The notes under the pieces are model-generated. The model saw only the letters and a program-made list of their open reading frames with translations, did no database searches and was not told where the DNA came from. From NCBI GenBank assembly GCA_038087875.1, contig CM075992.1:4218001-4282000 (forward strand): a DNA stretch of 64,000 nucleotides, written 5' to 3'. The stretch is from Malacoraja senta (lineage: Eukaryota). Shown in pieces: positions 10,301-62,494 of this stretch. The stretch's first letter is position 1; each line of letters opens with the position of its first letter. A program made the translations under genes and the position numbers.

Positions 10301-10402
10301 TGGAATTCTTTGCCACAGAAGGCTGTGGAGGCCAATGGATATTTTTAAGGCAGAATAGATAGATTCTTGATTAGTACGGGTGTCAGAGGTTATGGGGAGA
10401 AA

Positions 10403-10957
10403 TCAAGTCAAGTCACTTTTATTTCTATAGCACATTTACAAAACAACTCTCGTTGACCAAAGTGCTTTACATTGGTGGAGGTACTAACGTTATACAACAG
10501 TGGTTCATAGATTAAGTACATACATAAATACTTACATATAGCCCTCCCTCAGAGGACGTCAGGAAAGGCTTGAGAGTAAAGATGAGTTTTAAGTCTCGAC
10601 TTAAAGGAGTCGATGGAGGGGGCAGTTCTGATGGGAAGAGGGATGCAGTTCCACAGTCTAGGAGCTGCAACCGCAAAGGCGCGGTCACCCCTGAGCTTAT
10701 GCCTAGACCGCGGGATGTTCAGTAACCCCGTGAGGTTTGAGTAATGGGGTAAGGCTTCCAAGGCTGCCTGCTATCATTTTGATTGAGTCCAAGGGGCCGA
10801 GAAGGATGACCTCAGACTTACTCTCGTTTAGTTGGAGGAAGTTCTGGGCCATCCAACACTTTATATCCTCGTGGCAGTGGATAAGGTTAAGTAGATTTGA
10901 TCGTTTTTTGGACTTCAGGGGGAGATAGAGTTGTGCATCGTCTGCATAGCAATGGAA
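10403..10957 (-). mobile_element. L2-clade LINE 3' fragment with internal deletion, nested in a CR1 end
   Basis: FHCYADDAQLYL near 10950 joined to RGDRAFAVAAPRLWN...SFKSRLKTHLY; (TTGAC)n tail; related 3' end at 29335-29572 (+). Confidence 0.8.
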
Positions 10958-11824: not shown

Positions 11825-12059
11825 GGGTCTGTCCCACTTTCACGACCTAATTCACGACCTCTGCCGAGTTTGTCCTTGACTCATACTCGCAGCATGGTCG
11901 TCACGAGGTCGTAGGAGGTCGTAGGTAGGTCGTAGCAGTCCGTGATGCTAGTCGTAGGTAATCATGGCATCAAGTAGGTCGGGGAGATTTTTCAACATGA
12001 TGAAAAATGTCCACGAGTAAAAAAGATCGTGAATTAGGTTGTGAAAGTGGGACAGGCCC
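11825..12059. mobile_element. CTGTCCCAC-terminus MITE (CACGAC subfamily)
   Basis: TIR ctgtcccactttcacgacctaattcacga; same subfamily as 47928-48169 in opposite orientation. Confidence 0.85.
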
Positions 12060-12915
12060 TTTACACTGCCTTTACAAGTGGGACAGGCCCTTTACACTGC
12101 CTTTACAAGTTGTCCAAAACTTTAGGCTGTGCACGAAGAAGAAGACACTGTCTTTGGTACATTATTGGTACAGTGGCTAGGGAGGCTGGAACTTTATTCC
12201 TTGGAGCAGTGGGGGGGTTGAGGGGTGGTCTTGTGGAGTACATAGAGTAGGGGTGGCAAGAACCAGTGGACATAGGTTTACAGTGAGAGGAGAAAGATTT
12301 AATGGGAACCTGAGGGGCAACTGTTTCACCCAGAGGGTGGCGGGTGTATGGAACGAGCTGCCAGGTTAGCTCGTTTGTACAGGTACATGGATTGGAAAGA
12401 TTTAGATGGATATATGAGCAAAACTTGGGCAGGTGGGACTGGTGTAGGAGGCATCTTGGTCGGCTTGGCCAAGTTGGGCTGAAGGGCCATTTTCCATGCT
12501 GTATGACTCTATGACTGTGTTGCCACTTTGAGTTAATTATACAGTATCATTAAATATTAAATCACAAGGATTGATAATGTGAATTATTTTTGCAGTTCAC
12601 CATCTGAGAGTCTTACTGGCAAATGGAGACATGAGAGACTACACTTTCTGGAACATGGGGCATAGACAAACTGTTGGAGGACCTCAATAAGTTCATGTTA
12701 TAGGAGCAGAATTAGGTCATTCGACCCATCATGTCTACTTCGCCATATAATCATGGCTGATCTATCTTTCCCTCCCAATCCCATGCCCCCGCCTTCTCCC
12801 CACAACCCCTGACACCCGTACTAATCAAGAATCTATCAATCTCCACCTGAAAAATACCCAATGACTTGGCCTCCACAGCCTTCTGTGGCAATGAATTCCA
12901 CAGATTCACCGCCCT

Positions 12916-14712: not shown

Positions 14713-16183
14713 TTCACAGACAGCATCTCTGGAGGACATCAGTATGATTCAATTATACAATAATTCAATATTGTTATATGTACCCATGCAAAATTCTCTG
14801 TCTTGCATACAATCTGGTAAAATCACTCTATATAGATAAGCATAATCACAGATAAAGTACAACAATTGTCGTGTAAGAATAGTAGACTTCACTGAGGCAG
14901 TAATCAAAGAGTCACCACCTTTCTGGCACCAATGTGTCCTTCAAGTTTCAAGGTTTTTCGAGAACCAGAGGACATAGGCTTAAGGTGAGGGGAGAAAGAT
15001 TCAATGGGATCCTGAGAGGTAACTATTTTACACAAAGGGCGGTGGCTGTATGGAACGGGCTGCTGGAGGAGGTAGTTGAGGCAGGTAGCATCCCAACGTT
15101 CGAGAGACATTTAGTCAGGTACATGGATTGGGTAGGTTTAGAGGGATATGGGTCTAAGGCAGGCAGTAGGGACTAGTGTCGGAGGGAACTCCAGATGCTG
15201 GTTTAAACCAAAGATAGACACAAAAAGCAGATGTAACTCAGCGGGACAGGCAGCATCTCTGGAGAAAAGGAATGGGTGACATTTTGGGTCGAGACCCTTC
15301 TTCAGACCCAGCTTTTTGTGTCTATCTTGGGACTAGTGTCGATGGGACATGTTGGTCACCATGGGCAAGGTGGACCAAAGAGCCAGTTTTCACGCTGTAT
15401 GACTCTCTGACTATGACTGCTCCCTAACCTCGACAGTTGCCTCTCTTAAAATTCCCCACCTCTCCTCATCCAAGTTCTTGTTAATGTTACTTCTTAACTG
15501 TTTGACCCCTTTCCTAAAACCTCGTTGTATAGCCTGATGTCTGAGCTTTGGTAAAGCTCCCACAGATGTTCAATATGCTCTATAAATCCAAGGTGTCTTT
15601 CGTACTGAGAAATCTATGCATTGGATGTTCGATTGGCACACCTTGCCCACAGTGACCAACATGTCCCATCTACACTAGTCCCAAGATAGACACAAAAAGC
15701 TGGGTCTGAAGAAGGATCTCAACCTGAAACATCACCCATTCCTTCTCTCCAGAAATGTTTCCTGTCCCGCTGAGTTACTCCAGCATTTATTGTCTCTGCA
15801 TTAGATGTGTTAGCTTCTGGAAAGAACTGGAGAACCAGCCACCAGCAGGAGGAGCTACATTGCCCCATCTATCGAACGGCTATTGTAAATCAGACCAATC
15901 CCCATGCACAGAAAAGATGTGATTTTATTCACTTCTGGGGAGTGAGCTTCAATATCACATGTTGCCGACCACTACCTGTCCTTAAGAAGGCGGTGGTGGG
16001 CTGTTTTTTTTAGCCATGCAGCAGTTATAGAAACATAGAAAATAGGTGCAGCAGTAGGCCATTCGTCCCCTTGAGCCAGCACCGTCATTCAATATGATCA
16101 TGGCTGATCAACCAAAATCAGAACCCCCTTCCTGCTTTCTCCCCATATCCCTTGATTCCGTTAGCCCTAAGAGCTATATCTAA

Positions 16184-19398: not shown

Positions 19399-19908
19399 CT
19401 TTAGGGTGTGGGAGGAAACCAGAGCACCCGGAGGAAACCCACGTGGTCAACGTGCAAACTCCACATGGAAGTCAGGATCGAAACCAGGACAGGATCAAAC
19501 CCAGGTATCTGACGCTGTGAGAGGCCTCTCTACCAGCTGCGCAACTGTGCCGCCAAAGTTAGCTATGCCAACAAAGCTACAGCATAGGAAGGAACTGCAT
19601 CTGCTGGGTTACACCAAAGATAGACACTAAATGCCGGAGTAACTCAGCAGCGCAGGCAGCATCTCTGTATAGAAGGAATTGGTGACATTTTGAGTCGAGA
19701 CCCTTCTTCAGACTTCATGTCTGAAGAAGGGTCTCAACCCGAAACATCACCCAAAAATCTATCTCTGCCTTAGAAATATTCATTGACCTGGTCTCCACAG
19801 CTTTCTGTGGCAAATAACTCTACAGATTCACCACCCTGACTAAAGAATAGTATAGGTGATAATTGACAAAAAAAAAAAAAATACATGGTATTGAATGCTG
19901 CTAAATGC

Positions 19909-28161: not shown

Positions 28162-30639
28162 CTGGAGACAAAATCAGAACGAGTTACCCATGAGAACGTG
28201 CAGTTGAGTCGCTACAGTTTACGATAAGATAAGTAAGTAAGTTTATTGGCCAAGTACCCACATACAAGGAATTTGCCTTGGTGCTCCGCCCACAAGTAAC
28301 AACATGACATACAGTGACAGTTACGAATGACTCAGAAAACACTAAACATTAATAATAATAAAACACCATTGATCAAGCATGTGAACCAACAAAATACCAG
28401 ATCAAAGGGAGGCTACAGATTTTTGGCTGTTGAGTAGAGCAACTACTCGTGGATAAAAACTGTTTTTATGTCTGGCTGTGGCAGCTTTGACAGTCCGGAG
28501 TCGCCTTCCAAAGGGAAGTGATTCAAAGATTTTGTGGCCAGGGTGAGAGGGGTCAGAGATGATCTTGCCTGCTCGCTTCCTGGTCCTTGCAGTGTACAGT
28601 TCATCAATGGAGGGAAGGTTGCAGCCAATAACCTTCTCAGCTGATCGGACGATTCGTGATGCTGCCTTCATTGATGTTTGCAGCGGTAATTGGTTCCCTT
28701 GGGTCACTGCCATTTGCAGTGCAGTAGAATAGTGAAAGGCTTGGATAGAGTGGATGAGGAGAGGATGCTTCCACTAGTGGGAGAGCCTAGGACTAGAGAT
28801 CATAGCTTCAGAATTAAAGGACGTTCTTTTAGGAAGGAGATGAGGAGGAATTTCTATAGTCAGAGGGTGGTGAATCTGTGGAATTCTTTGCCACAGAAGG
28901 CTGTGGAGGCTGTCAGTGGATATTTTTAAGGTGGAGGCTCTTGATTAGTACAGGTGTCAGAGGTTATGGGGATATGTCATGCAAAGAGCAGCAGACAGAG
29001 ACAACTTCAGCAATACTTTGAAAGAGCTAAGTTATCATCATTTAAAACCACTGAAACATTAAAGTAACAGATCACTTTTGAGGTGTTGCAAAATTGAGCA
29101 TGAATTGAAAGTCATCGACTATCATTTCTTTTGGTCAAGGAAACGGCAATAACATCATAACGCTGTCTGTGGATCAGATTAAAGCTTCTTCTACACCAGT
29201 GCTCCCGTTAGATCAAATTTCACGCTTGGAGCTTCAGGTTTGACAGCATTCTAGGTTCAAAGGACCTCGTTCTCCTGACGGTTTAAGAAACAACTGCAGA
29301 TGCTGGAAAAATCGAAGGAAGATACTGTGGAACAGTATCCCTCTTCCCATCAGAACTGCCCCCTCCATCAACTCTTTTAAGTCTAGACTTAAAACTTATT
29401 TCTACTCTCAAGCCTTTCTTGAGGTCCTCTGAGGGAGCGCTGTATGTATGTATGTATTGTTAGATCTACGTACCACTGTATGTAGCATGTTAGTACCTGC
29501 ACTGATGTAAAGCACTTTGGTCAACGAGAGTTGTTTTTAAATGTGTTATAGAAATAAAATTGACTTGACTTGATAAAAATGCTGGAGAAACTCAGCGGGT
29601 GAGGCAGCATCTATGGAGCGAAGGGAAAGGTGACGTACACCCATTTCCTTCGCTCCATAGATGCTGCCTCACCCGCTGAGTTTCTCCAGCATTTTTATCT
29701 ACCTTCGTTCTCCTGACTTGTCAACCTGAATGCTAAAAGGAAGGACAGAGATTTCTAAACCTGCTCCCTCTACTTCTATCCATTTTGCTCGTAGGTCTGA
29801 ACAAGATGAAAGGCTTTAATTAACCCTGTGAAGTAATACAATTCTCTAATCCTAATAAACAGCCAAAAGTAACCTGTGCAAGAACTATCAGATTGGAGAG
29901 AGTTTCAACCTTGTTTGGCTGAGGACTCCCTCCCCCACCTTATTTGCTCCTTCTGGGCATACATTCCATAATTCCACACCATCAAATTAAGTCTGACACC
30001 ACTTCGATAAATGTAACAACATTTTGAGCATTATTAACATTTTGAAGTCCACACTTCAAAACAGCAACTGAGAGCTAAGCAGAGCAAAATTAAATTGGAT
30101 ACGTAGGAAGGAACTGCAGATGCTGGTTTATACCGAGGATAGACACCAAGTGCTAGAGTAAGGTACACAAACATGTTGGAGGAACTCAGCGGGTGCAGCA
30201 GTATCTATGGAGCGAAGGAAATAGGCAACGTTTCGGGCCGAAACCCTTCTTCAGACTGATAGGGGGGAGGGGAGGGGGAGAGGTAACTCCGGGAGTAACT
30301 GCAGGAAAATAATGTGTAACCTTTCGTCTCTGAAGAAGGGTTTCGACCCGACACCCGCCCTTTTGCTCCAGAGATGCTGCCCAAAGATCTTAGAGCAGAG
30401 ATGCTGACTGACCCGCTGAGTTATTCCAGCACTCCGTGCTTAAAATGAAATTGGAGGCAAATTACACAATTCTGAAATAAATGTAAAGCATAAACCCTGC
30501 AAAGCAAAACAATGTGTTGAGCATCGCGGTAAGAAATTAATGCAAGGAATGGGAAGTAGTGATGAGTCAAGTCAAGAGTGGTGTATTGTCATATGTCCCA
30601 GATAAGACAATGTGTGTTCTTACAAAAGTCGACTCTTAC

Positions 30640-31303: not shown

Positions 31304-34300
31304 ACTCCAAAGATCACCTTCCTCAAAGCTGACTGCCAGCAAAAAAAAACAAAAAAACAACCCCTCCCCTTGTTTTTGCTGCTTCGGTTTGCAAGTGCTG
31401 ACAGGCAACTTTTGTGTAGCATCAATCAGTTTTCAATAAATGTATTTTGATGGGTATCTTGAATTCCCACAGATCTGTCTCACATGCCCAATACTTCCAA
31501 TCACTGCCACACTCCACCCCCCTTGATCCTACCACACCTTCCTCCCCCCTCTTCCTCATTCTCATCCTCTCTGTACCCTCTGCTCTTCCCTCTCCACACC
31601 CTCTCCACACTCACCCCTCCGGTCCTTCCCACGTGTTTTAAGGTGAGAGGGCAACGTTTTCACACAGAGATCTGGGATGAGCTGCTGGGGCAGAAAATAG
31701 AAGGCAGAGATAAGACTTGTTGCCTTCCATCACCGTGAGGAGGTGCCTGGAAATTCACTGTGATGAATGTTTGTGCTAAATTGTGTTAATTGCGTGTTTT
31801 GTTGCATTTTTACTCTCAAGACTGCGTGGTACAACATTTCGTTCAAACTTGTTTGAATGACCATAAAGGAAATTCAATTCAAAAGACACCTGGGCAGGAA
31901 CATGGATAGGAAAGGTTTAGAGGGATAAGGGTGAAACACGGGCAGGTGGGACTAGTGTAGATGGGACACCGAGTGTAGATGGGCAAGCTGCTGGGTCAGT
32001 TTATAGGGCGGGGATGCTAAAGGGGGCTAATATAGAACTAGTGTGAATGGGTGATCGATGGTTGGTGTGAACTCGGTGGGTTGACGGGCCCGATTCCATG
32101 CTGTATCGTTCAATTAATCAATGTTGAACTCGACTTAAACAGACGTATGTAGGTCAGTAAGCATGGGATAAAGAATATGTCTCTGGAATGTTGGTGGTTG
32201 ATTGGAGACAATATAAAATTATGAGAGGCATAGATAGGATAGACAGTCAGAACCTTTTTCCAAGCGTGGAAATATCCAACAAAAGAGGGTATAGCCATAA
32301 GGTGAGAGGGGGGGAAATATAATGGAGTTGTGTGGGGTAAGTGTTTTACACAGAGGGTGGTGGGGGCCTGGAATGCATTACCAGGGGTGGTGGTGGAAGC
32401 AGATACAATAGAGGCGTTTAAGAAGCCTTTAGATAAGCACATGGATTTTCAGGAAATGGAGGGAAATGGGTCACTTGCAGGCAGATGAGATAAGTTCAGC
32501 TAGGCATCATGTTGAGCACAAGCACTGTGGGCCAAAGGGCCATGTTCTTCAGAGATACTGATACTAGGTTGATGCTGTGGTCAAGATGGTTGCTGGGAAG
32601 AAGCTCTACTTGAACTTAGCGGTCATGGATTTCAAATTTCTATATCGCCTTCCCGATGGTAGAAGTGAAATGAGAGCATGAAATGACAGGGTTGTGTGGA
32701 TTTTCATGATGCTGGCTGCCTTTTTGAGGCCACCCCTACTATAGATCGCTTTGATGGTGGGGAGGTCAGTATCCGTGATGGACTGGGCAGTGTTTACCAC
32801 TTTTTGCAATCTCCTTTGTTCCTGGGCGTTCGAGTTGCTGAACCAGGCCATGATGCAACCAGTCAATATGCCCTCTACCGAACACATGTAGAGGTTCAAG
32901 ATAGCATTCATCGACATTTCAAATCTCCTCAATACGATATGATATGATACAATAGAATATTTATCCCAGGAGGGAAATTGATCTGTCAACAGTTATAAAA
33001 ACTCAAAACATAAACATAAAATTAAAGTGACGAGTGGAAAGGATTGGTGATGTGATGTGCAAAGATTGGGGAGGGGGGGTGGGGGGGGGGTGAGGGGAGT
33101 CAGTCTCAGTCTACCCCATGACAGAAGGGGGAGGAGTTGTACAGTTTGATGGCCACAGGGAAGAAGGATCTCCTGTGGCGTTCTGTGCTGCATCTTGGTG
33201 GAGCCAGTCTGTTGCTCAAGGTACTCCTAAGGTTGACCAGTGTGTGTCATGGAGGGGGTGAGCTGTGTTGTCCAGGATTTTGTCCAATCTTCTAAGGAAG
33301 TAGGGACATTGATGGACATTCTTTACAATGGCATCAATATCCCGAGTTGGTGACTCCCTCCACACCAGCCTGTCGATGAAGACAGGTTCGTTATTACAAA
33401 ATTCTTAAAGGATTGGACAGGCTAGATGCGGAAAAAATGTTCCCCATGTTGGGGGAGTCCAGAATCAGGGGGGTCACAGTTTAAGAAAAAGGAGCAAACC
33501 ATTTAGGACTGAGATGAGGAAAAATCTTTTCACCCAGAGAGTTGTGAATCTGTGGAATTCTCTGCCACAGAAGGCAGTGGAGGCCGATTCACTGGATGTT
33601 TTCAAGAGAGAGATAGATTTAGCTCTTGGGGCTAAAGGAATTAAGGGATAAGGGGAGAAAGCAGGAACGGGGTACTGATTCTGGATGACCTGCCATGATC
33701 ATATTGAATGGCGGTGCTGGCTCAAAGTGCCAAATGGCTCACACCACCACCTATTTTTCCATGTTTCTACGTTTCTAAGTGATTCAGTTTTGGACAAGTG
33801 TTGACAAAGGGTGGTCATGCTTTTTCCCATGTTACAAGGTAGATCACAGTTCACTCTATCTTCCCTCTTTCCCCCGCTTGGGTTCGCACACACACTATAT
33901 TGAAAAACAAATGGAAATATATAAATTGTGCGTTCACCTTCAGGCTGGATTAACATAAGAACATTAATAAGCTGTCTAATTCCAAAGGAGAATTAGCTTT
34001 TGTTCTGCCTCGACAGGTTTTAAGTGCAAGTTTTACCAAGCCCAGAACGGTGAACCCTAGCCTAAGGTGTCAGTAAATGACTCTTCCAGTTGCCTAAAAA
34101 TAACAAGAAAAACATTTCAAAGCCCAGATTCTGAGTGCATCAATCAAGATCAGCTGGAGTTACTGACTTGGCTCAGAACAGAGGGTGGGACGTTACGATG
34201 CTGTCAGTAACTGAATGATAAGCAGATATTTTCCTTCACTCAAAAAGCTGGTGTGAAGGAGTGAACTGCAGAGAAGGAGTGAAATCAGTCTGAAGGTGGG

Positions 34301-37016
34301 CAAGAAATGCTGGAGAAACTCGGCGGGTGAGGCAGCACCTATGGAGAGAAGGAATAGGCAACGCTTCGGGTCGAGACCCTGAATGTCGCCTATTCCTTCT
34401 CTCCATAGATGCTGCCTCACCCACTGAGTTTCTCCAGCATGTTTTGTCCACCTTCGATTGTTCCAGCATCTGCAGTTCTTTCGTAAACAAATCAGCCTGA
34501 AGATGGGGCTCAACCCAAAAGCTTTTTGTGTCTTTCTTTTTGCTGCACTGCGCTCCAATAATCCCCTTCCCAAATGCTCAGAGGTCCCGATGGTTTGGCA
34601 TCTGACACGCTGAATGCCGAATCTTCACAATCTCTGTAACTCATCAGGCCTCTGTTCCCTGGCAACCTTTAAACTCACAGGGAATCAACAGTGAGTTAGC
34701 TCTTCGGGCTAAAGGAATCAAGGGATATGGGGGAAAAGGATGGAATGGGGTACCGATTTTAGATGATCAGCCATGATCATATTGAATGGTGGTGCTTCTC
34801 GAAGGGCCGAATGGCCTACTCCTGCACCTATTTTTCTATGTTTCTATGAATAAGTCCTTCACTCTCTTTAAATTCATCATGGCCCTAGTTCCCGTACTCC
34901 CTTTCAACTCACCGAGTTCTGCTTCATGAGCTCCTTGTAAACTTACAGAGAAAATTCATTATATTATTGTTGAACATGTAAAAAAGTAGCAAAGTGCACT
35001 AATAGGTGTTGAGTATTAGGTGCAAAAAGAATATTATTTGGAGTTAATCCAAAATCTACCAGTATAGCATTACTCACTGCAGCAGAATTTCACAAAGTCT
35101 CACTGTACCATTTCCTCCATAACTTTCTTTGTAAGCATTATGTAAAAACACTTTGCCTATGTTGTCCGCTTTTCTCAAACTAGAATTGTGCAATGCACAG
35201 GGGATATATTTGAGGGTGGAATTAAGTAGTTGGTAAGTTACCGTTCTAACAGCCAGAGTTCTGATCTACTGGTTCAAAGACATAAATTCCACTCCCATCA
35301 TGGAAGTTGGGGAATTTAACTATGGGTAATTAAATGAGAATGGAATTAAATTAATATTGACGACCATACTGGACTGTAAAATACCATCTGGTTTCATAAG
35401 TGCCCTTCAGGGAAGAAAATCCGCTGGTCCCATCGAGTGAGCTCCATGTAACTCCAGACTCAGCTGTTTATTATGAGAGTTATCAGACAGATAGTGAGAG
35501 TCTTTGTTCATAGTTGACAATGGCTTGGACGGATGATACATGCCAATATTACTCATGATGTTCACACCCTGTGAATGATTGAATAAATAAAAAATACATT
35601 TGCACGGACGGTGCATGTTTGCAAATTCCCTATGAAAATTTCCACACAACATTTGGTATTGTTAAAAAGAACCTGCGCTAACAAGTGAGAGATTGATTGG
35701 AAAAAAGGGCACAGAGTGCTGGAGTAACTCAATGGGGTCACGCAGCATTCCTGGAGAACGCAAATAGGTGACGTTTCAGGTCGGGATTCTTCTTCAGACT
35801 CAAAGTGCTGGTGTAACTCTGCATTTCAGGCAGCATCTCTGGAGAGCATGGATAGGTGTCATTTCGGGTCAGGGCCCTTCTTCAGATACAATGTGCTGGA
35901 ATAACTCCGTGGGTCAGGTGGCATCTCTGGAGAACATGGATAGGTAACGTTTCGGGTTGGGAGCCTTCTTCAAAGGAAATTAATCACACAGTGTCTGTGG
36001 ATAGTTCTTGGTTTACATGTCCACCCAGGTCATTTCTTCTTTCCCTGCTCCCATCCAGCAGAGGGCATAAAAGCTTGAAAACACACACCACCAGACTCGG
36101 GAACAGCCTCTTCTCCTCTGTTATCAGGCTTGTGAATGGTCCTTCCATAAGATAGGGTGCTGTCCGATTCATCTCTATCCCATTGCGGTCATAGACTTGG
36201 TCTATGGAACTGATGCTGAGAACTATATAGAAACATAGAAAATAGGTGCAGGAGGAGGCCAATTGGCCCTTCGAGACAGCACCGCCATTCATTGTGATCA
36301 TGGCTGATCGTCCCCAATCAATAACCCGTGCCTGCCTTCTCCCCATATCCCTTGATTCCACTAGCCCCTGGAGCTCTATCTAACTCTCTCTTAAATCCAT
36401 CCAGTGACTTGGCCTCCACTGCCCTCTGTGGCAGGGAATTCCACAAATTCACAACTCTCTGGGTGAAAACGATTTTTCTTACCTCAGTCTTAAATGGCCT
36501 CCCCTTTATTGTTCCATCTATTGCGCTTGAGTTTGACTTAATTGTATTTATGTATAGTATTACCTGACCCGTTTGGATGGCATGCAAAACACAGCCTTTC
36601 ACTGTACCTCGGTACACTGGACAATAATAAACATAACTCTAAACTTAAACCTACATGGTAAAGGCGAACTACGCAGAAATACCCTTCAAGGATTGTAAAC
36701 TAGTTCCTTGGTGGGATGAAATCTTGCCATTAGCAGATGGCATATATCACAAAGGAAATCTCACAGTACAAACAGCCTGAGGATATTTTCAATAGTGTTT
36801 TCCAAATGCTATTAAGGCTAATGGCTCATTTTTTGAAGATGGCAACACTGCCAATATCACAATGTCACAATAATGGCAGCAACTTTGCAACTTCTATCTG
36901 GCTTCAAATGCCTAATGCTGAAGATTTTCCATGGTGAGTAAGCCTGTACTGTACTTTAACTGGATACTGTTGGCAGCCATTGACCAGTTATGTCCGGAGA
37001 TCACTTCAACGTGACT

Positions 37017-38043: not shown

Positions 38044-39624
38044 ACCAATTCCTTCTCTCCATAGATGCTGCCTGTCCCGCTGAGTTACTCTTGCATTATG
38101 TGTCCACCTTCTCCATAGATGCTGCCTGACCGGTTGTGTTACTCCAGCACTTGGTGTCCTTTTAAGCTATTCTTGAACCTGGTGGTCACGGTTTTCAGAC
38201 CCTGATACCTTCTTCTCAATGGCAGGAGTGAAATGAGAGCATGGCCAGTGTGGTGTGTGTATAAGAAGGAACTGCAGATGCTGGTTTAAACCAAAGATAG
38301 ACGCAAAAAGCTGGAGTAACTCAGCAGGACGGGCAGCATTTCTGGAGAGTAGGAATGGGTGACGTTTTGGGTCTGAAGAAGGATCTCGACCTGAAACATC
38401 ACCCATTCCTTCTCTACAGAGATACTGCCTGACCCGCTGAGTTACCCCAGCTTTTTATGTCTGCCATTGTGGTGTGGGTCTTTGATGATGCTGGCTGCCT
38501 CTTTTGTGGGTGAATCAGTTTGAAAGAATTGAATGGGTGACTCTTGCTCTGTTTTCTTTCCTGTTTATTTGTTTCTATGGCATCGGAGCCATATCTACCC
38601 CTCAAATCAGTGATCTGTTCATTGTTGTGTTGCTGTCTGTGGGAACTCATTGGGTACAGATAGTTTCACCTGCTGTCAGCATATATGGTTTGGTTTGGAA
38701 CAATTCCATGTAACTTGGAAAGAAAAACAAATTGGCAGCCCACATGGCCACATGTTCTACTGTTGGATCTTGTCCTGCAAGTTATTCGCAGACATGGAGT
38801 GTTGAGCTTCTGCAGAAGTTACTGATGCTTCTGCTAAATGAGTTGTTGGACTCAGTCCCAGCGGTATGGAAAACTAACACAAAGCTTGCAGTTTGGATGA
38901 GGGAGGGCATGCATGATCCCTGCCAAATTAACCTTGCTTGAGTCCGAAAGAGGATGTTGGTCCAGGTTGTGCAAGGAATTCTCCTTAAACTTTAGACGTT
39001 AGAGATACAGCACGGACACAGACCTTTCAGCCCACTGAGTCCATACCAACCAACGATCACCCGTACACTAGCTGCATCCTACACACTAGGAACTAGAAAT
39101 GGCTCGAAGGGCCGAATGGCCTACTCCTGCACCTTTTGTCTATTGTCTAACATTTACAGAAGCCCAATTAACCTGCACGTCGTTGGAATGGAAACTGGAG
39201 CACCCGGAGAAAAGCCAAGCGGTCACATGGAGAATGTACAAACTCCATACAGTTAGCACCCATAGTCAGGATCAAACCTGGGTCTCTGGCGCTGTGAGGC
39301 AGCAACCCTACCGCTGCGGAACTGTGTTACCCCAAATTTGTAAAAATACTTCTTGTTGGGTTCAGGATCAATTGAAGAAGGGTCCCAATCCAAAACATCA
39401 CCACTTTCCATGTCAAGGCTAAAGGACAGCTAAGAGTCAAGCACATTGATAGATTAAGAGACATTTGACTAGACTGAGCAAAAATGGTATAATAGATGGT
39501 ATCAGATGGTGATGTGTAGCACTGAAGCAGATGGGCTTACTGATAGTTTTGTAGCCAAATACATAGATTGTTCGTGATTTGGCCATTTCAGTTCATGCAA
39601 CATTTACTCAAGCATTCTACCACG

Positions 39625-40285: not shown

Positions 40286-40568
40286 AAATCTTCTGATTCT
40301 CTCTCCCTCATCAGTCCAGCATCACCTTAAATGTCTGATTCACCTCACTCAATCCCTAAGATAGTGAGCAAAACACAAAGAAATGCCACCTCAGTACGTT
40401 CTCCAGGGCTGACCCGCTGAGTTTAGTTCAGTTTAGAGATACTGTGCACGAACAGGCCCTTCGTCCCACCGAGTCCACCCCAACCAGCGATCCCCGCACA
40501 CTACCACTATACCACACGCACGAGGGACAATTTACACTGATACCAAGCCAATTAACCTACAAACCTGT

Positions 40569-40657
40569 CTGAAGAAGGGTTTCGGCCCGAAACGTTACCT
40601 ATTTCCTTCGCTCCATAGATGCTGCTGCACCCGCTGAGTTTCTCCAGCATTTTTGTG
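40569..40657 (+). mobile_element. Mini-PLE insertion in a SINE, starting at the hammerhead core
   Basis: 16 bp TSD taacctacaaacctgt (40553-40568, 40658-40673). Confidence 0.88.
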
Positions 40658-40887
40658 TAACCTACAAACCTGTACGTCTTTGGAGTGTGGGATAAACCGA
40701 AGATGTCAGAGAAATCCCACGCTGGTCACGGATGAGAACGTACAGACTCTACAGACAGCACCCGTAGTCAGGATCAAACCCGGCTCTGGCGCTGCAAGGC
40801 AGCAACTCTACCGCTGCACCACCGTGCCACACTTGGAGTCATTCCAGTTATTCTACAAAAGTGTGTGTTGTCCAGTTGGAAATGTGA

Positions 40888-42726: not shown

Positions 42727-43811
42727 TTAAGATAGACACAACAAGCTGGAGTAGCTTAGTGGGTCAAACAACAACTTTGGAAAAAAGGAATAGGTGACGT
42801 TTCAGGTTGAGTCAAAGAATTGTCTCCACCCGAAAAATGCCACCTATTCCTTTTCTCCAGAGATGTTGTCTATCTGCTGGGTTACTCTGTGTCTCTCTAA
42901 ACCAGCATCGGCAGTTCCTTCCTACACTGGTACAAGTTCCTGTACCTGTGCTGCTCTGTTCTATGTTCTACCATCCCGCTCACACTACATAATAATGGAG
43001 ATCTCACTGGAATAATAGATCTGCTGTCTGGATTTTGCTTACCTCGCCAACAAATACCCCTGAAGCAATGTTGTTTTCAACGTCTCCATGGAAACTGTTG
43101 TGCTTTACGTACGACCTGTCAAGTTTCCGATCCTGCTACAGTGCTGCAGAAGATCAAGGAGCAAGGTTGAGGCACATATCTCTGCTATTTTTACAGCTGT
43201 CATTTGACAGGTTGTTGGCCAGGAGCCCGCAAACATTGCTACCAGGGTTAGGGCAGTGCCGCACCGCTGATGGTCCAACCTGATACGTGAGCTCCACGTC
43301 CCCATTACCCTCCAAGACCGCGGGACACTGCAGGGAATTATGGACGCAGCCAAGGCCACCACACAAGCCAACCAACCAGGTGGCGCACGGTCATGTCCCC
43401 AACAACCATGGTAGGGTTGTTAAAAATCAAAATGCATGCCTTGAAATTGCTCCGCAGTCATCATACCAACTTCAGTTGAAGCAAAGACAACACTCAGATG
43501 TGGCTAAACAGCTAATTTAGCTATCACAACCAAAAATACATTTCTAAGCAGCAGTACCTTCACTTGGACAGAGCTGGTCAGAGATGGTACTTCTCGTATG
43601 TGTATGTGACAAATAAACTTGACTTGACTCGACTTGACTTGTTTCGGGTCGAGTCCCTTTTTCAGACTGAGAGTCAGGGGAGAGGGAATCTAGAGGTATG
43701 GAAAGGTGCAGAACAGGCACAAGTAGTGGTCAGCGGTAGAGTTGCTGCCTTACATCGCCAGAGACCCGGGTTCAATCCTTACTACGGGTGCTCTCTGTGC
43801 TGTCATGTAAA

Positions 43812-47420: not shown

Positions 47421-47927
47421 TTCATTTCATTACATATACATTGCTGTACAAAGACTGCACTCAAACAAGATGGGGGGCTGGGGTCAGGGGTGAGGGTGGG
47501 GAGGATCACAGTTTCATCGATTATTAGAAACATAGAAAATAGGTGCAGGGGTAGTCCATTCGACCCTTCGAGCCATTCAATATGATCATCCAGAATCAGT
47601 GCCCCGTTCCTGCTTTCTCCCCATATCCCTTGATTCCGCTTCTTACGCCGAACAGCTTCTTGGCAACAATAATCAGGCTATCGAACACTGCAAACTCCAA
47701 CTGTACTCCGCAGTGGAAACTGCCTGGGTTGCACTAGGGACTGGTCTTGGTTTGTTTTTTATATATTGAAATTTTATTTTTTATTTTTATTTTTTTATTT
47801 TATCCACTGAGAATTGTGTTCACAATCCTGGAAGTAAGAATGTCATTGTTCCGTTTTGGTATATATGACAACAATCTAATTTTAAAAAATGCGGCACGGT
47901 GGCGCAGCGATGGAGTTGATGCCTTAA

Positions 47928-48169
47928 GGGCCTGTCCCACTTTCACGACCTAATTCACGACCTTTTATACTCGTGGACATTTTTCATCAGGCTAGAAAAA
48001 ACGCCCCGACCTACTTGATGCCACGAGTACCTACGACTAGCATCATGGCCTGCTATGACCTACCTAGGACCTCCTACGACCTCCTACGACCTTGTGACGA
48101 CCATGCTGCGAGTATGAGTCAAGGGCAAACTCGGCACAGGTCGTGAATTAGGTCGTGAAAGTGGGACAG
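47928..48169. mobile_element. CTGTCCCAC-terminus MITE inserted in a SINE head
   Basis: Interrupts the SINE sequence gcctta|cagcg; right TIR lacks its outermost bases. Confidence 0.85.
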
Positions 48170-48353
48170 CGTCGGAGACCCGGTTCGATCCCGACTACGG
48201 GTGCTGTCTGTAAGGAGTTTGTACGTTCTCCCCGTGACCTGCGTGGGTTTTCCCCAGGAGCTCTGGTTTCCTCCCACACTCCAAAGACATGCAGGTATTT
48301 CGGTAAATTGGCTCGGTAAATGTAAAAGGGAAAAGGCAGCAGATGAATATAGT

Positions 48354-50589
48354 GTTAAAGAAGGAACTGCAGATGCTGGAAAATCAAAGGTACACAAAAT
48401 GCTGGAGAAACTCAGCGGGTGCAGCAGCATCTATGGAGCGAAGGAAACAGGCAACGTTTCGGGCTGAAACCCTTCTTCAGACTGATAGGGGGTGGGGAGA
48501 AGAAAGGAAAAAAGGAAAAAGGCGGAGGAGGAGCCCGAGGGCTGGGGAGGGGAGGAGAGACAACCAGATGGCTGATGAAGGGGAGGGGACAGCAAGGGCT
48601 AGCAGAATTGGGAGAATTCAATGTTCAAACCCCCAGGATGTAGACTGCCCAAGCGGAATATGAGGTGCATTTCCTCCAATTTACGGTGTTGCTCGCTGTG
48701 GCCATGGAGGAGACCCAGGACAGAGAGGTCAGATACGGAATGGGAGGGGGAGTTGAAGTGCTGAGCCACCGGGAGTTCAGGTTGGTTATTGCGGACCGAT
48801 GTTCGGCGAAACGATCGCCAAGCCTCCGCTTGGTCTCACCGATGTAGATCAGCTGGCATCTAGAGCAGCGAATGCAATAGATGAGGTTGGAGGAGATGCA
48901 GGTGAACCTCTGTCGCACCTGGAACGACTGCTTGGGTCCTTGAATGGTGTGGAGGGGGGAGGTGGAGGGACAAGTGTTGCATCTCTTGCGGTTGCAAGGG
49001 AAAGTACCAGGGGGAGGGGGTGGTATGGGAGGGAAGGAATGAATTGACAAGGGAGTTACGGAGGGAGCGGTCTTTGCGGAAGGCAGACATGGGAGGAGAT
49101 GGGAAGATGTGGCGAGTGGTGGGGTCACGTTGGAGGTGACGAAACTGACGGAGGATCACTTGTTGTATGTGACGGCTGGTGGGGTGAAAGGTGAGGACTA
49201 GGGGGACTCTGCCTTTGTTGTGAGTGGGGGGATGGGGAGAGAGAGCAGTGTTGCGGGTATGGCAGAGACCCTGGTGCGAGCCTCATCTATGGTGGAGGAG
49301 GGGAACCCCCGTTCCCTGAAGAATGAGGACATTTCAGATGCCCTGGTGTGGAACGCCTCATCCTGGGAGCAGATGCGGCGTAGACGGAGGAATTGGGAGT
49401 GGGGGATGGAGTCCTTACAGGAAGCAGGGTGGGAAGAAGTGTAGTCCAGATAGCCATGGGAGTCGGTGGGTTTGTAGTGGAATCCACTACAAACCCACCG
49501 GTGGTTTCCACTACAAACCCACCGACTCCCATGGCTATCTGGACTACACTTCTTCCCACCCTGCTTCCTGTAAGGACTCCATCCCCCACTCCCAATTCCT
49601 CCGTCTACGCCGCATCTGCTCCAGGATGAGGCGTTCCACACCAGGGCATCTGAAATGTCCTCATTCTTCAGGGAACGGGGGTTCCCTCCTCCACCATAGA
49701 TGAGGCTCGCACCAGGGTCTCTGCCATACCCCGCAACACTGCTCTCTCTCCCCATCCCCCCCACTCACAACAAGGGCAGAGTCCCCTAGTCCTCACCTTT
49801 CACCCCACCAGCCGTCACATACAACAAGTGATCCTCCGTCATTTCGTCACCTCCAACGTGACCCCACCACTCGCCACATCTTCCCATCTCCCCCCATGTC
49901 GCCTCCGCAAAGACCGCTCCTCGTAACTCCCTTGTCAATTCTTCCCTTCCTCCCATACCACCCCATCCCCTGGTACTTTCCCTTGCAACCGCAAGAGATG
50001 CAACACTTGTCCCTTCACCTCCCCCTCCACACCATTCAAGGACCCAAGCAGTCGTTCCAGGTGCGACAGAGGTTCACCTGCATCTCCTCCAACCTCATCT
50101 ATTGCATTCGCTGCTCTAGATGCCAGCTGATCTACATCGGTGAGACCAAGCGGAGGCTTGGCGATCGTTTCGCCGAACATTGGTCCGCAATAACCAACCT
50201 GAACTCCCGGTGGCTCAGCACTTCAACTCCCCCTCCCATTCCGTATCTGACCTCTCTGTCCTGGGTCTCCTCCATGGCCACAGCGAGCAACACCGTAAAT
50301 TGGAGGAAATGCACCTCATATTCCGCTTGGGCAGTCTACATCCTGGTGGCCTGAACATTGAATTCTCCCAATTCTGCTAGCCCTTGCTGTCCCCTCCCCT
50401 TCATCAGCCATCTGGTTGTCTCCTCCCCTCCCCCAGCCCTCGGGCTCCTCCTCCGCCTTTTTCCTTTTTTCCTTTCTTCTCCCCACCCCCTATCAGTCTG
50501 AAGAAGGGTTTCGGCCCAAAACGTTACCTATTTCCTTCGCTCCATAGATGCTGCTGCACCCGCTGAGTTTCTCCAGCATTTTTGTGTAC
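48354..50589. mobile_element. Penelope-like element 3' portion as a 2.2 kb head-to-head palindrome with 17 bp TSD
   Basis: Both arms encode RT thumb (YKPTDSHGYLDYTSSHP...SQFLRLRRICS) and GIY-YIG endonuclease (CNRKRCNTC...NLIYCIRC...YIGETKRRLGDRFAEH); cagcagatgaatatagt at 48337-48353 and 50590-50606. Confidence 0.92.
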
Positions 50590-50631
50590 CAGCAGATGAA
50601 TATAGTTTGTCATTTGTTAATTCCAAGGGCT

Positions 50632-50650
50632 GCACCACCATCTAGTGGTT
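50632..50650 (-). promoter_or_regulatory. Candidate CTCF site
   Basis: Minus strand AACCACTAGATGGTGGTGC resembles the CTCF core CCASYAGRKGGCRS; motif match only. Confidence 0.4.
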
Positions 50651-51554
50651 GTCAGTAGTAACTGCTGCTCATTGTAAACAAGGCAAGGGTCACTGATTGA
50701 TCACAGGACCTTTGACAAACAGGCCCTGAAGCATGGGCAGCTTACAACCCAATGATATGAATATTGATTTATTTAACTTCAAGTAACGCCGGCATGCCCT
50801 CTCCCCATCCCTCCCCCACCCAAGTCATACCACCTTCTCGTTTTCACCCAACAAACAGCTAACAATGGCCTGTATCCTTTATCATCGTTACGTTTTTGCA
50901 TATCTTTCATTCATTGTACAATATCTCTCTACATACACCATCGTCCGTATCTCTCGTTTCCCTTTCCACCGACTTTCAGTCCGAAGAAGGGTCTCGACCT
51001 GAAACGTTGCCCATTCCTGCTCTCCAGAGCTGCTGCCTGTCCCGCTGAGTTACTCCAGCTGTTTCTGCCTATCTTCGGTTTAAACCAGTATCCGCAGTTC
51101 CTTCCTGCACGAGGCCAATGGTAAGGTCTGCTATGGTCTTATGCACAATTAAAAATGCACTAATGCCCATTGAAAAAGCACCGACATCAACCACTCGGTT
51201 ACACTAATTGCTGGGCCAAAAAGGAAAGGCCACGTGGAATTGGTGTTCCAAGTTTAGTTTAGTTTAGAGATACAGCACGGCCCACCGAGTCCACGCCGAC
51301 CAGCGATCCCCATACGCTAGCACTATCCCACACACTAGGCACAATTTTACAACTTTACCAAAGCCAATTAACCTACAAACCTGTATGTCTTTGGAGTGTG
51401 TGAGGAAACCGGAGCACCCGGAGCAACACCCACTTGGTCACAGGGAGAACGTACAAACTCTACACAGACAGCACCCGTAGCTAGGATCGAACCCCGGGTC
51501 TCGGGCGCTGTGAGGTAGCAACTCTACCGCTGTGCATCTGTGGCCACCCCGTAA

Positions 51555-57028: not shown

Positions 57029-57157
57029 TGAAGTCTGAAGAAGGGTTTCGGCCCGAAACGTTACCTATTTCCTTCGCTCCATAGATGCTGCTGCACCCGC
57101 TGAGTTTCTCCAGCATTTTTGTGTACCTTCGATTTCCAGCATCTGCAGTTCCTTCTT
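57029..57157 (+). mobile_element. Mini-PLE insertion
   Basis: 15 bp TSD taaaactataacaac (57014-57028, 57158-57172); hammerhead-like motif 57035-57062. Confidence 0.88.
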
Positions 57158-57570
57158 TAAAACTATAACAACGTTGCAGCAAGTCAGAATTTCATAGTTC
57201 CTGTTCTGGTGCATGTGACAATTGAACACTCTTGACACTCTATATCACAAGCCAAAGCTACATCCCCCCTTGTCATCGCAGGACACTTCCAAAGTGGCGC
57301 AATGATTTCTAAATGCCTCATCCCTCAGCTGAAAATGGTGGTCCACCAGTTCACTAGCCTGCGCTTTCAACCAATTGATATGGAGTCTGTTGAACCTATT
57401 TGGTAGCTGGCAGGGTCAAGATCAAGTGGACAAGCTTAGTGGAGAGTTCAGCTGCCCAGTGAGTTGGTGGAAATTTCATGTCAAGTTTATGAGTTCCCAG
57501 ATACACTCATTATTAATATTTATTTTACTGTCTGATCCCTGCATTTTGTAATCCAGGCTGGGGGGAACAC

Positions 57571-58480
57571 AAGGTAGACAAAAATGCTGGAGAAACTCAG
57601 CGGGTGAGGCAGCATCTATGGAGTGAAGGAAATAGGCAAAGTTTTGGGTCGAGACCCTTCTTCAGACTGATGTGAGGGTGGAGGGGGGGGAAGACGAAAG
57701 GAAGAGGTGGAGCCAGTGGGCTGAGGGAGAGCTGAGAAGGGGAAGAGAAAGTAGGACTACCTGAAATTAGAGAAGTCAATGTTCATACCACTGGGGTGCA
57801 AACTGCCCAAGCGAACATGAGGTGCTGCTCCTCCAATTTATGGTGGGACTCACTCTGGCCATGGAGGAGGCCCAGGACAGAAAGGTCAGATTGGGAACGG
57901 GAGGGGGAGTTGAAGTGCTGAGCCACCGGGAGATCAGGTTGGTTATTGCAAACTGAGCGGAGGTGTTGGGCGAAGCGATCGCCAAGCCTGAGCTTGGTCT
58001 CACCGATGTAGAGCAGCTGACACCTAGAGCAGCGGATGCAATAGATGAGGTTGGAGGACGTGCAGGTGAACCTCTGCCACACCTGGAAAGACACATATCA
58101 TTGGAAAGATGCTGAGTAGACTCAGAAACATTGAATTCTCCAATATTATGTAATGTTTACAACCTCCACCCCCCCCCCCCTTCCATTTTCTCCCCCTATC
58201 TTTTCCCTGCCCCATCCCCTGGGCCCCACCTCCTCCCCACCTGGACTTGCACCCATTTCACCCCACCCCCTCCTCTTCCACCTCCTCCGCCAGGCACATT
58301 CCTTCCTCTGGCCTCACATTTGCCACTCTTCAATCCCTTTGTCTCACACCCTCAGTTTTAATCTCTGACCTCTGTTCAACCATCTGCCTATCTCCACCCT
58401 TACCTGTGCCTACCTATCACCTGCCAGCTTTCCTCACCCTCCATCCTGACAATCCCGTCCCGAAACGTCATCTATCCATG
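57571..58480 (-). mobile_element. Penelope-like element 3' fragment with adjoining inverted segment
   Basis: 57776-58096 encodes FTCTSSNLIYCIRCSRCQLLYIGETK (GIY-YIG); 58105-58480 resembles the PLE 3' UTR in the opposite orientation. Confidence 0.8.
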
Positions 58481-60073: not shown

Positions 60074-62494
60074 ATCTTTCTACTGACTGGTTAGCACGCA
60101 ACAAAAGCTTTTCACTGTACCTCGGTACACATGATAATAAACTGAACTGGAGGAGTGTGGATCATTTGCAGGCAGTCAGAGATGGTACAGGCATCAAGTT
60201 GGGGAAGTCCAGAACAAGGGGTCACAGTTTAAGGATAAGGGGGAAGTATTTTAGGACCGAGAGGAGAAAATCATTTTTCACACAGAGAGTGGTGAATCTG
60301 TGGAATTCTCTGCCACAGAAGATAGTTGAGGCCAGTTCATTGGCTATATTTAAGAGGGAGTTAGATGAGGCCCTTGTAGCTAAAGGGATCAGGGGGTATG
60401 GAGAGAAGGCAGGTACAGAATACTGAGTTGGATGATCAGCCATGATCATATTGAATTGCGGTGCAGGCTCGAAGGGCCGAATGGCCTACTCCTGCACCTA
60501 TTTTCTATGTTTCTATGTTTCTATGTAAGTTCGGCACAGACATTGTGGGCCGAAGGGCCTGTTCTTGTGCTGTACTGTTCTACCTTCCATGTTCCCTGTC
60601 CCATGTTCTGCGTGACGGAACTGGCGATTCAGCAACATTAACGATCCGCGTTGATTCTTGGAAGATACGCAACCCCTTTGCTTTCAAAGCTCAATCGACA
60701 ACCTGGTGAAAGAGTTACTGAAAAATAGAATTCTTTACCCAAGGAATGAAGTCCTGCTGATCCCATTCCTCGGAATCAAGTTAATCATTTTTCTCTCTCA
60801 TCGCTATCAGTCAACAACCCCTTATCTTTTATTTGTCTTTCACACACACACAAGGATTGCATATGAATCTGCGCTCGCTTGATGTGCTTTAGCGACTGGG
60901 ACTTAGTAAGAGGTTATGGGCCTGATCCTCATTTGACTGCAGAGCCTATTGCAAGGTGGAGTTACCATTTTTACTACATCTCAGCAATCAGAGTGTGGGC
61001 AAAGTCCAGATTGCACATTATACACGAGAAGGAGTCAGTTATATTCCTTCCATTCGGCACAGCGGGATCCTTTCTGCGCCAGAAAAGAAATGTTTTTGGG
61101 CTTGCTCTGCGTGTGATGTGAGGATCTGACTGGAAAAACCATGTCGGCCTGTGTGGTTGGAGCAGTTTATCGACCTTCATCGATAGAGCACTCTTTTAAT
61201 GCAAGTGAGTAGACGTGTCTGTTGCCGGGAAGTCTAGTGTGAGCTGGGAGGGCTATATTAGCGGGTCAAAACACAGGTAAATGGGCCAAGCTTAGATTGG
61301 GCGTTTTGGTTGGCATGGACGAGATGGGCCGAAGGGCCCGTTTCCACTCTGCATGATTCTATGACTATATCGGGGAAAGTTAAAAGTTGTTCTGCATACC
61401 TTGTGCTCTGCTCAAATCTGTGATTTAATGGCTTCGATTCTGATGAGTTGGGTGACTTGGCAAAGATTAGTTGTAGTTTAGTTAGTTTAGAGATACAGGA
61501 TGGAAACAGGCCCTTCAGCCCACCATCCATGCCAACCAATGATCACCCTGTACCCAAGCTCTATCCTACACATGAAGGACAATGTATTGGGATGGTTATT
61601 GGGACGGTTTCCCTCCCACACTCCTAAGACATACAGGTTTTGTAGGTTAATTGGCTTCGATAAAATTGTAAATTGTCCCTAGTGTGTAGGATAATGCTAG
61701 TGTGCGGGGATCGCTGGTCGGTGCAGACTCGGTGGGCCGAAGGGCCTGTTTCCACGCTGTATCTCTAAACTAAACTCAACTAAAAACGTTCAGTGTATTT
61801 GATGTAAAGGGTGGGATCTGACAGGTAAGGCCTGAAGATCTGAGTTTACTACTCTGACCAGATGATGTGAAGCACATTCTTGAACTGTTGCAGTCCCACT
61901 GGTGAATCTTGCTGAGAAGGAAGTTTCAGACTTTAAAACCCAGCAATGATAAAGGAATGATGAGAGAGAGTCATACAGCGTGAAAACAGGCCGTTTGGCT
62001 CAACTAGCCCACACCGACCAACAAGCCCCAGAGATCTGTACACAACACAGCAAGGGGTTTCATTATCATAGTCATAGTGATACAGTATGGAAACAGGTCC
62101 TTTGGCCCAACTTTCCCACACCAAACAACAGGTCCCAGCTACACTAGTCCCACCTGCCTGCGCTTGGTCCATATCCCTCCAAACCTGTCCTATCCATGTA
62201 CCTGTCCAACTGCTTCTTAAATGTTGGGATAGTCCCAGCCTCAACTACCTCCTCTGGCAGCTCGTTCCATACACACACCACCCTCTGTGTGATTACAATT
62301 AGCAAAGAGTGCACTATATGCCAATTCTGTTAATGGGCCATTAGACTTGAAAGAATAACTCATATTCTCTCTCCAAGATGCTGGCCAACACTATGAGTAT
62401 TTCTAGCACTTTCAGCTTTCACTAGAGTATCCAAGGCCTTGGTTCAATGTGCCATCTGAATGCCGACAGTGTGAAAGACCCATCCTTTTTTTTT

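Follow-up and report, generated by a model that had tools for sequence, protein, structure and literature searches.

Architecture of the insertion

Positions 48337–50606 of the window, the 64,000-nt stretch of Malacoraja senta contig CM075992.1 that was analysed, hold two head-to-head, 5′-truncated Penelope-like element (PLE) copies under one target-site duplication (TSD), a structure that we confirm and consider real with high probability. The left TSD copy (48337..48353, + strand) is an exact direct repeat of the right copy (50590..50606, +), matching at 17 of 17 positions and not extendable, and the 17-mer has only these two occurrences in the whole window (chance ~1e-8); the first base of the right copy also fits the next element base. 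Adjoining the left TSD is a 35-nt PLE tail (48354..48388, − strand), which is present on the left arm only and also terminates the solo copies at 760–890 and 57032–57160. The left arm (48389..49481, −) comprises the thumb region that follows the RT core, a Cys linker, a GIY-YIG domain and the 3′ UTR/pLTR, and the right arm (49507..50589, +) is a tail-less, 5′-truncated copy with a hammerhead core altered at 50518. Aligned over 1097 columns, the left (48389–49481, −) and right (49507–50590, +) arms are 97.1% identical. An earlier note on this DNA had described both the 17 bp TSD around the palindrome and the ~35 extra terminal bases of the left arm, and these are borne out; its left-arm coordinates also stand, but the second copy of the tccac... 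segment starts at 49507, not 49508, and the spacer reads gtggtt.

The 2 kb on each side of the insertion have only dispersed repeats in common (74–82%). A fold-back read chimera would be expected to mirror its flanks and to lack a direct TSD; because the duplication here runs in direct orientation and the flanks show no mirroring, such a chimera is very unlikely to be the source of the structure and was dismissed. Of 21 listed sequencing runs, 20 contain part of the sequence, the highest share of matching words being 0.55. Four sequencing runs were compared with 49445–50950, of which one gave nothing and three, probably from other species, gave family copies that covered the repeat, with a depth of 0–12 over the unique flank at 50618–50719. 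The inverted 5′-truncated copy, the 30–40 nt tail at one end and the TSD are traits of EN+ PLEs, as is the C-terminal GIY-YIG downstream of RT in one ORF (PF01541; collinear with the relative P0004). This architecture is already described for PLEs, and the locus is a further example.

Coding content and element identity

In tblastn searches with P0004, an RT-bearing relative of 908 aa with YIDD at residue 559, both arms match residues ~617–902, and therefore begin after the RT core. These matches uphold the thumb and GIY-YIG content previously proposed for both arms, and the Penelope-like identity is likewise corroborated by the GIY-YIG, the relatives and the collinearity with P0004. The RT-core residues of P0004, P0008, P0001 and P0002 gave no tblastn match anywhere in the 64-kb window. 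The GIY-YIG motif, with an internal CxxC (48838..48885, −), is recognized in translation by Pfam PF01541 with E=2e-4 (22.1 bits) to 5e-4, just below the gathering cut-off of 22.6. Between RT and EN, the translation contains a C-x4-C-x2-C linker (48970..48996, −), also present in the mirror copy, that corresponds to the CX2-5CxxC linker before EN regarded as a mark of Neptune and Nematis elements (PMC8557442). By this linker the element is classed as a Neptune-type PLE, an assignment drawn from a feature common to Neptune and Nematis in a copy lacking the RT core, so that phylogeny does not settle Neptune versus Nematis.

The ORF remnant of the left arm (48599..49479, −) has frameshifts near 49257 and 49014 and a 7-nt deletion, shared with the right arm, near 48799. 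Both arms are frameshifted, and the copy, truncated and frameshifted, is dead. With a 75-aa query piece, 23 of 36 candidate proteins were matched, and the two most similar (89% and 79% identical) are skate-labelled; several of these relatives bear RVT_1 or GIY-YIG, and the closest named ones come from skates and a stingray. Thumb regions in the relatives carry the precomputed family PF26215; the local copy of Pfam returned no family for the thumb-region pieces of the arms, the ESM Atlas gave no usable match, and the metagenome and viral collections gave 0 matches. The C-terminal part of one skate protein (P0002), which is labelled as a nicotinamide riboside kinase 1 isoform, consists of PLE RT and thumb sequence; this is probably a gene model running into a PLE.

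A minimal hammerhead motif is predicted in the pLTR of the left arm (48453..48480, −) by pattern match, with intact core letters and one stem II mismatch; the core pattern occurs in the left arm and at 15 other places. At gathering score, Rfam gave 0 matches in the whole window, hammerhead included, and RNA folding of the tail and hammerhead regions yielded z ~0.4 and ~0.1, so the monomer fold is not significant; nor did folding show a stem-loop at the RT start sites. This motif type has been described with opposite-strand pairs 100–700 bp apart (PMC4209133). The 5′ ends of pLTR matches in the window cluster where the hammerhead core begins, with 18 of the 60 falling in the position-0 bin. In contigs of two runs (X15, depth 381; X17, depth 92), at right-arm coordinates 50586 to 50527, the tail-less 3′ end is joined, with one G between, to the base after the predicted hammerhead cut; such a joint, if go-back, would point to circles or tandem units with ends set by ribozyme cleavage.

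A single event with shared rare changes

The two arms begin at one and the same template base and have in common the 7-nt deletion, which an older copy at 57571–58092 lacks. In three runs, the deletion site has contig depths of 299, 32 and 10 against bin means of 0.5–3 million, these being summed contig depths from other species and not copy counts. At 49847 and 50031, the letters that the arms share are replaced in 98–99.9% of family depth in related genomes, where the PLE family is very abundant (65,000–118,000 contigs per run). The single TSD, the shared deletion and the two shared rare letters support the proposed origin of the palindrome in one event, and the deletion and letters also point to a common template for the inner part.

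The junction between the arms

The arms are separated by a 25-nt junction insert (49482..49506), which was analysed from its strand switches, its hairpin folds and the upstream letters in related genomes. Read across the centre, the left arm is followed by a 19-nt copy that repeats the arm start in sense orientation (49482–49500), then by a reverse piece, and then by the right arm from 49507. The reverse piece is a copy of the end of the 19-nt copy itself, one G short and overlapping on CG. The natural upstream letters of the arm start could be read from loose family-contig ends in related genomes; because they are known, the first base of the insert is recognized as templated, and the three sense starts fall within one base of each other. 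The insert is templated from sequence lying at most 20 nt from the junction, with overlaps of 1–2 nt. Snap-back synthesis, as postulated in the earlier note, fits this centre; the "double" part of that claim does not, and a two-switch centre was rejected since three strand switches are counted in the sequence.

Snap-back and in-trans templated junction inserts have been described for SD-MMEJ (PMC5728401), and the insert resembles those of SD-MMEJ/polymerase-theta in being short and copied within ~30 nt of the junction. RT template jumping would leave the same picture at this locus, and the centre does not distinguish it from host end joining.

Differences between the arms

Between the arms there are 14 substitutions and 16 internal indel events. 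Deletions at homopolymers of the right arm had been pointed out previously; these exist, but are not the sole difference. The right arm has ten single-base losses within 49621–50021, and for nine of the ten, related genomes show the missing letter. Among 18 other repeat pairs in the window there are 37 gap openings per 293 mismatches, whereas the indel:substitution ratio between the arms exceeds 1 (Fisher p ~5e-8, one end gap included). The indel excess and the related-genome letters support the suspicion of polishing error in the right arm, and most of its deletions are probably consensus errors. An error-prone polymerase was not preferred as their cause, as ten losses in 400 nt seem too many for polymerase error rates. 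Inverted duplications are reported to cause missed bases in nanopore reads after the inverted junction (PMC7229812); because real inverted duplications have this effect, the local errors would fit a true palindrome.

Substitutions in the ORF are synonymous in seven of ten cases (P ~0.004–0.011 at a neutral share of 0.25–0.30; the share as modelled is 0.23–0.29). Three synonymous changes fall within 5 nt (50347–50351), and the chance of finding 3 of the 14 substitutions so close is ~0.01 for a statistic picked after seeing the data. Six of the ten lie within the error-rich zone, and outside it the synonymous signal is this one 5-nt cluster. Family letter frequencies were considered for the 40 of 83 rows listed, 50350 not being among these. 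The left-arm letter accounts for 59–73% of family depth in three runs at 50347, for 31%, 49% and <1% in the three runs at 50351, and for 64–81% at 50526; at all three positions, family copies in related genomes commonly have either arm letter, and at 50526 both are also present in other young copies of the window. These synonymous-rich differences hint that the outer right arm derives from a second source RNA. The same pattern would result from ectopic conversion, or if reads of other copies had been used in polishing.

Tail-less ends and small fold-backs elsewhere in the window

The 3′ ends of 60 pLTR matches in the window were compared, taken as reference-limited BLAST ends: 20 coincide with the tail end and 22 with the tail-less site, 18 are shorter, and 0 lie in the interval separating the two sites. 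The tail-less end is a discrete site. Solo pLTR matches have a TSD in 3 of 18 cases (two tailed, and one tail-less at 40567–40659), compared with 3 of 300 random intervals. A further match at 15633–15795 has its own TSD (11/12), ends at the tail-less site, and reproduces the tailed insertion next to it together with 50 nt of flanking sequence, which fits a read-through RNA primed internally. The tail-less site is therefore found without a tailed partner in two TSD-bounded insertions, 40567–40659 and 15633–15795. It also matches the second of two published RT start sites: the Anolis PLE protein, modelled as a dimer, nicks and extends both strands and has two RT start sites, one on either side of the tail (PMC11167929).

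Within 15169–15808, the tailed pLTR insertion (TSD 15169–15181/15329–15341) contains a 21-nt inverted piece, and 15633–15795 lies inverted and tail-less ~250 nt from it at 87% identity; the region is apparently a local hop with 5′ transduction. The matches at 760–890, 40567–40659, 57032–57160 and others look as if a SINE-like unit of 95–130 nt were self-standing in mobilisation.

Five small fold-backs had been named as showing the same asymmetry, and all five are indeed TSD-bounded head-to-head pairs with the tail on one arm. The tail-less arm extends further 5′ than the tailed arm by ~30 nt at 1066–1263 and by ~17–20 nt at 38260–38463, and it does so across the stem II loop at 34296–34488, where the tail is on the right arm. 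At 3266–3452 and 29280–29704, the tailed arm reaches as far 5′ or further, and at the latter it is split by a later 257-bp insertion, a repeat at 29319–29575 with a second copy at 10402–10657 (87% identical). In the first three (1066, 34296 and 38260), each arm holds sequence absent from the other, and copying one arm from the other cannot give such longer tail-less arms. All five are old (~78–92% to the reference), and later central deletions could thus have created the asymmetry. The count of five left out 19588–19745, 42729–42921 and 15182–15328. No TSD was found for the candidate at 19588–19745; in it and in 42729–42921 the tailed arm is as far 5′ or further, and in 15182–15328 the tail-less arm, at 21 nt, is far shorter than the tailed arm. 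These three fit either model and lend no support to two-nick priming. Overall, the proposal that one process yields hairpins of 0.2–2 kb is supported. The accompanying idea that the right arm was recopied almost to its start fares poorly, given that the tail-less site is discrete and used without a tailed partner, that three of the five small fold-backs have a longer tail-less arm, and that the arms of the large insertion differ at family-polymorphic synonymous sites.

Mechanism of insertion

We lean towards an origin in which both target nicks prime RT at two RNA start sites, with short templated snap-backs linking the cDNA ends. Specifically, the GIY-YIG endonuclease would nick both target strands 17 nt apart, as the TSD implies. 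One nick may then prime RT at the outer RNA start site to give the tailed left arm, and the other at the inner site, 35 nt upstream, to give the tail-less right arm; both nick-priming steps have been shown in vitro for another PLE, that of Anolis (PMC11167929). Since same-sense cDNAs cannot pair along their length, the two 5′-truncated cDNA ends would be joined head to head via short templated synthesis with 1–2 nt microhomologies, leaving the 25-nt stutter, presumably by polymerase-theta-like end joining or RT template jumping. Since the two arms end on one and the same template base, either both cDNAs would have run off one truncated RNA, or a long cDNA would have undergone snap-back, with the resulting copy then annealing to a second, shorter cDNA. 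In such a hybrid, the fold-back would make the inner part and the second priming the outer end, which satisfies both lines of evidence, as the outer differences suggest a second RNA and the shared deletion one inner template.

Several observations tell against two-nick priming. The same start base in both arms is predicted by a simple fold-back and not by independent cDNAs; two of the five small fold-backs have a tailed arm as long or longer, with central deletions possible; the in vitro work concerned a Poseidon-clade element, not Neptune; and endonuclease resolution of a fold-back intermediate could also fix the tail-less end (PMC8557442). In the main rival, which we consider rather less likely, one tailed cDNA folds back and is recopied; the copy is severed or set free at the tail boundary, where the endonuclease could act, and is joined to the second target end, with arm differences arising later via mutation, ectopic gene conversion or polishing. 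The common 5′ end point, the centre made of snap-backs, and the shared rare deletion and letters agree with it. Self-priming from palindromes at the inverted junction has moreover been proposed, there on an antisense template (PMC3846280), and the one-sided 30–40 bp tail that often accompanies an inverted 5′-truncated copy has been ascribed to EN-mediated resolution (PMC8557442). It is harder to reconcile with tail-less ends that exist without a tailed partner, with the sequence unique to each arm in three of the five small fold-backs, and with the three linked synonymous changes at 50347–50351, which are unlikely as neutral mutation (~0.01, post hoc).

If two insertions had hit the same spot independently, or if one arm had later undergone inverted duplication at the DNA level, this would explain why the arms differ at family-polymorphic sites in a family so abundant in relatives. 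Nevertheless, there is one TSD only and no second target sequence at the centre, the 5′ end points are identical, the rare deletion is shared, and the right end coincides with the tail-less site of the family, with five more such structures in 64 kb, making this origin quite improbable. An assembly artefact, either a fold-back chimera or a mis-join, is more improbable still. The raised indel:substitution ratio between the arms would be in keeping with one, as would the read support for the locus not found in runs probably from other species, but a chimera mirrors its flank and can yield neither a direct 17-bp duplication nor a stop at the tail-less site. The flanks share only dispersed repeats, and the local errors would fit a true palindrome (PMC7229812).

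Two-nick priming may also be put in a more specific form, which we offer tentatively, as a possibility short of an even chance: a dimeric RNP primes both nicks on two RNAs, at the tail and at the inner site, and the snap-back copy of the longer cDNA bridges to the shorter one. The outer right arm, from 50347 outward, would then stem from one source lineage and the inner part with the deletion from the other, with a template switch between 50182 and 50346. If this were true, the question of PLE integration would become a countable genomic test across the tens of thousands of copies in relatives.

Relation to known systems

The mechanism of inverted PLE insertions is still treated as hypothetical, with self-priming, endonuclease resolution and two RT start sites under discussion (PMC3846280; PMC8557442; PMC11167929). 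An inverted pLTR with a 31-bp tail and a TSD is the typical Penelope structure (PMC3846280), and the locus resembles EN+ PLE insertions (PMC3846280; PMC8557442) in its inverted truncated copy, one-end tail, single TSD and palindromic junction. It differs in that the inverted arm, spanning 1.1 kb of ORF and pLTR, equals its partner in length, and in the three-switch templated insert at the junction; the TSD is 17 bp here and 8–10 bp in the rotifer examples. The C-terminal GIY-YIG after a CX2-5CxxC linker is shared with Neptune and Nematis PLEs, although the RT core is missing from this copy. The Anolis element PAc is alike in its two RT start sites bounding the tail, as proposed here, and in a pLTR hammerhead motif, which is predicted here, but belongs to a different clade, Poseidon, and the accessible text of its description gives no account of inverted insertions (PMC11167929).

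The favoured two-nick priming also recalls L1 twin priming. There, both nicks prime cDNA under one TSD and the inverted junction shows microhomology, so that two-nick priming in one event, a single TSD and an inverted microhomology junction are common to both. In L1, the second primer anneals internally and the two parts do not overlap, whereas here both starts would lie at the RNA 3′ end, so that one sequence appears twice, as a palindrome. The literature searched, which most subscription papers lie outside, yielded no two-primer account of PLE palindromes, nor did a term search in the accessible text of 10.64898/2026.07.22.740005 and PMC9977147; it may be in print.

An arm pair of 1.1 kb offers enough diagnostic sites to ask whether one template or two were used, and the window holds at least six such fold-back structures in 64 kb. 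Long near-perfect palindromes are potential local hot spots of assembly error and possible dsRNA sources, both roles being putative here. Other repeats lie close by: just left of the insertion is a MITE-like repeat with 32-bp perfect terminal inverted repeats (47926–48169; second copy at 11829–12061, 89% identical), followed by an abundant 160-bp SINE-like repeat (48167–48326) that ends 10 nt before the left TSD and has 26 other matches in the window. Further old inverted pairs, 78% and 69% identical, are present at 1490–2432 and 61471–61785, and are not pLTR fold-backs.
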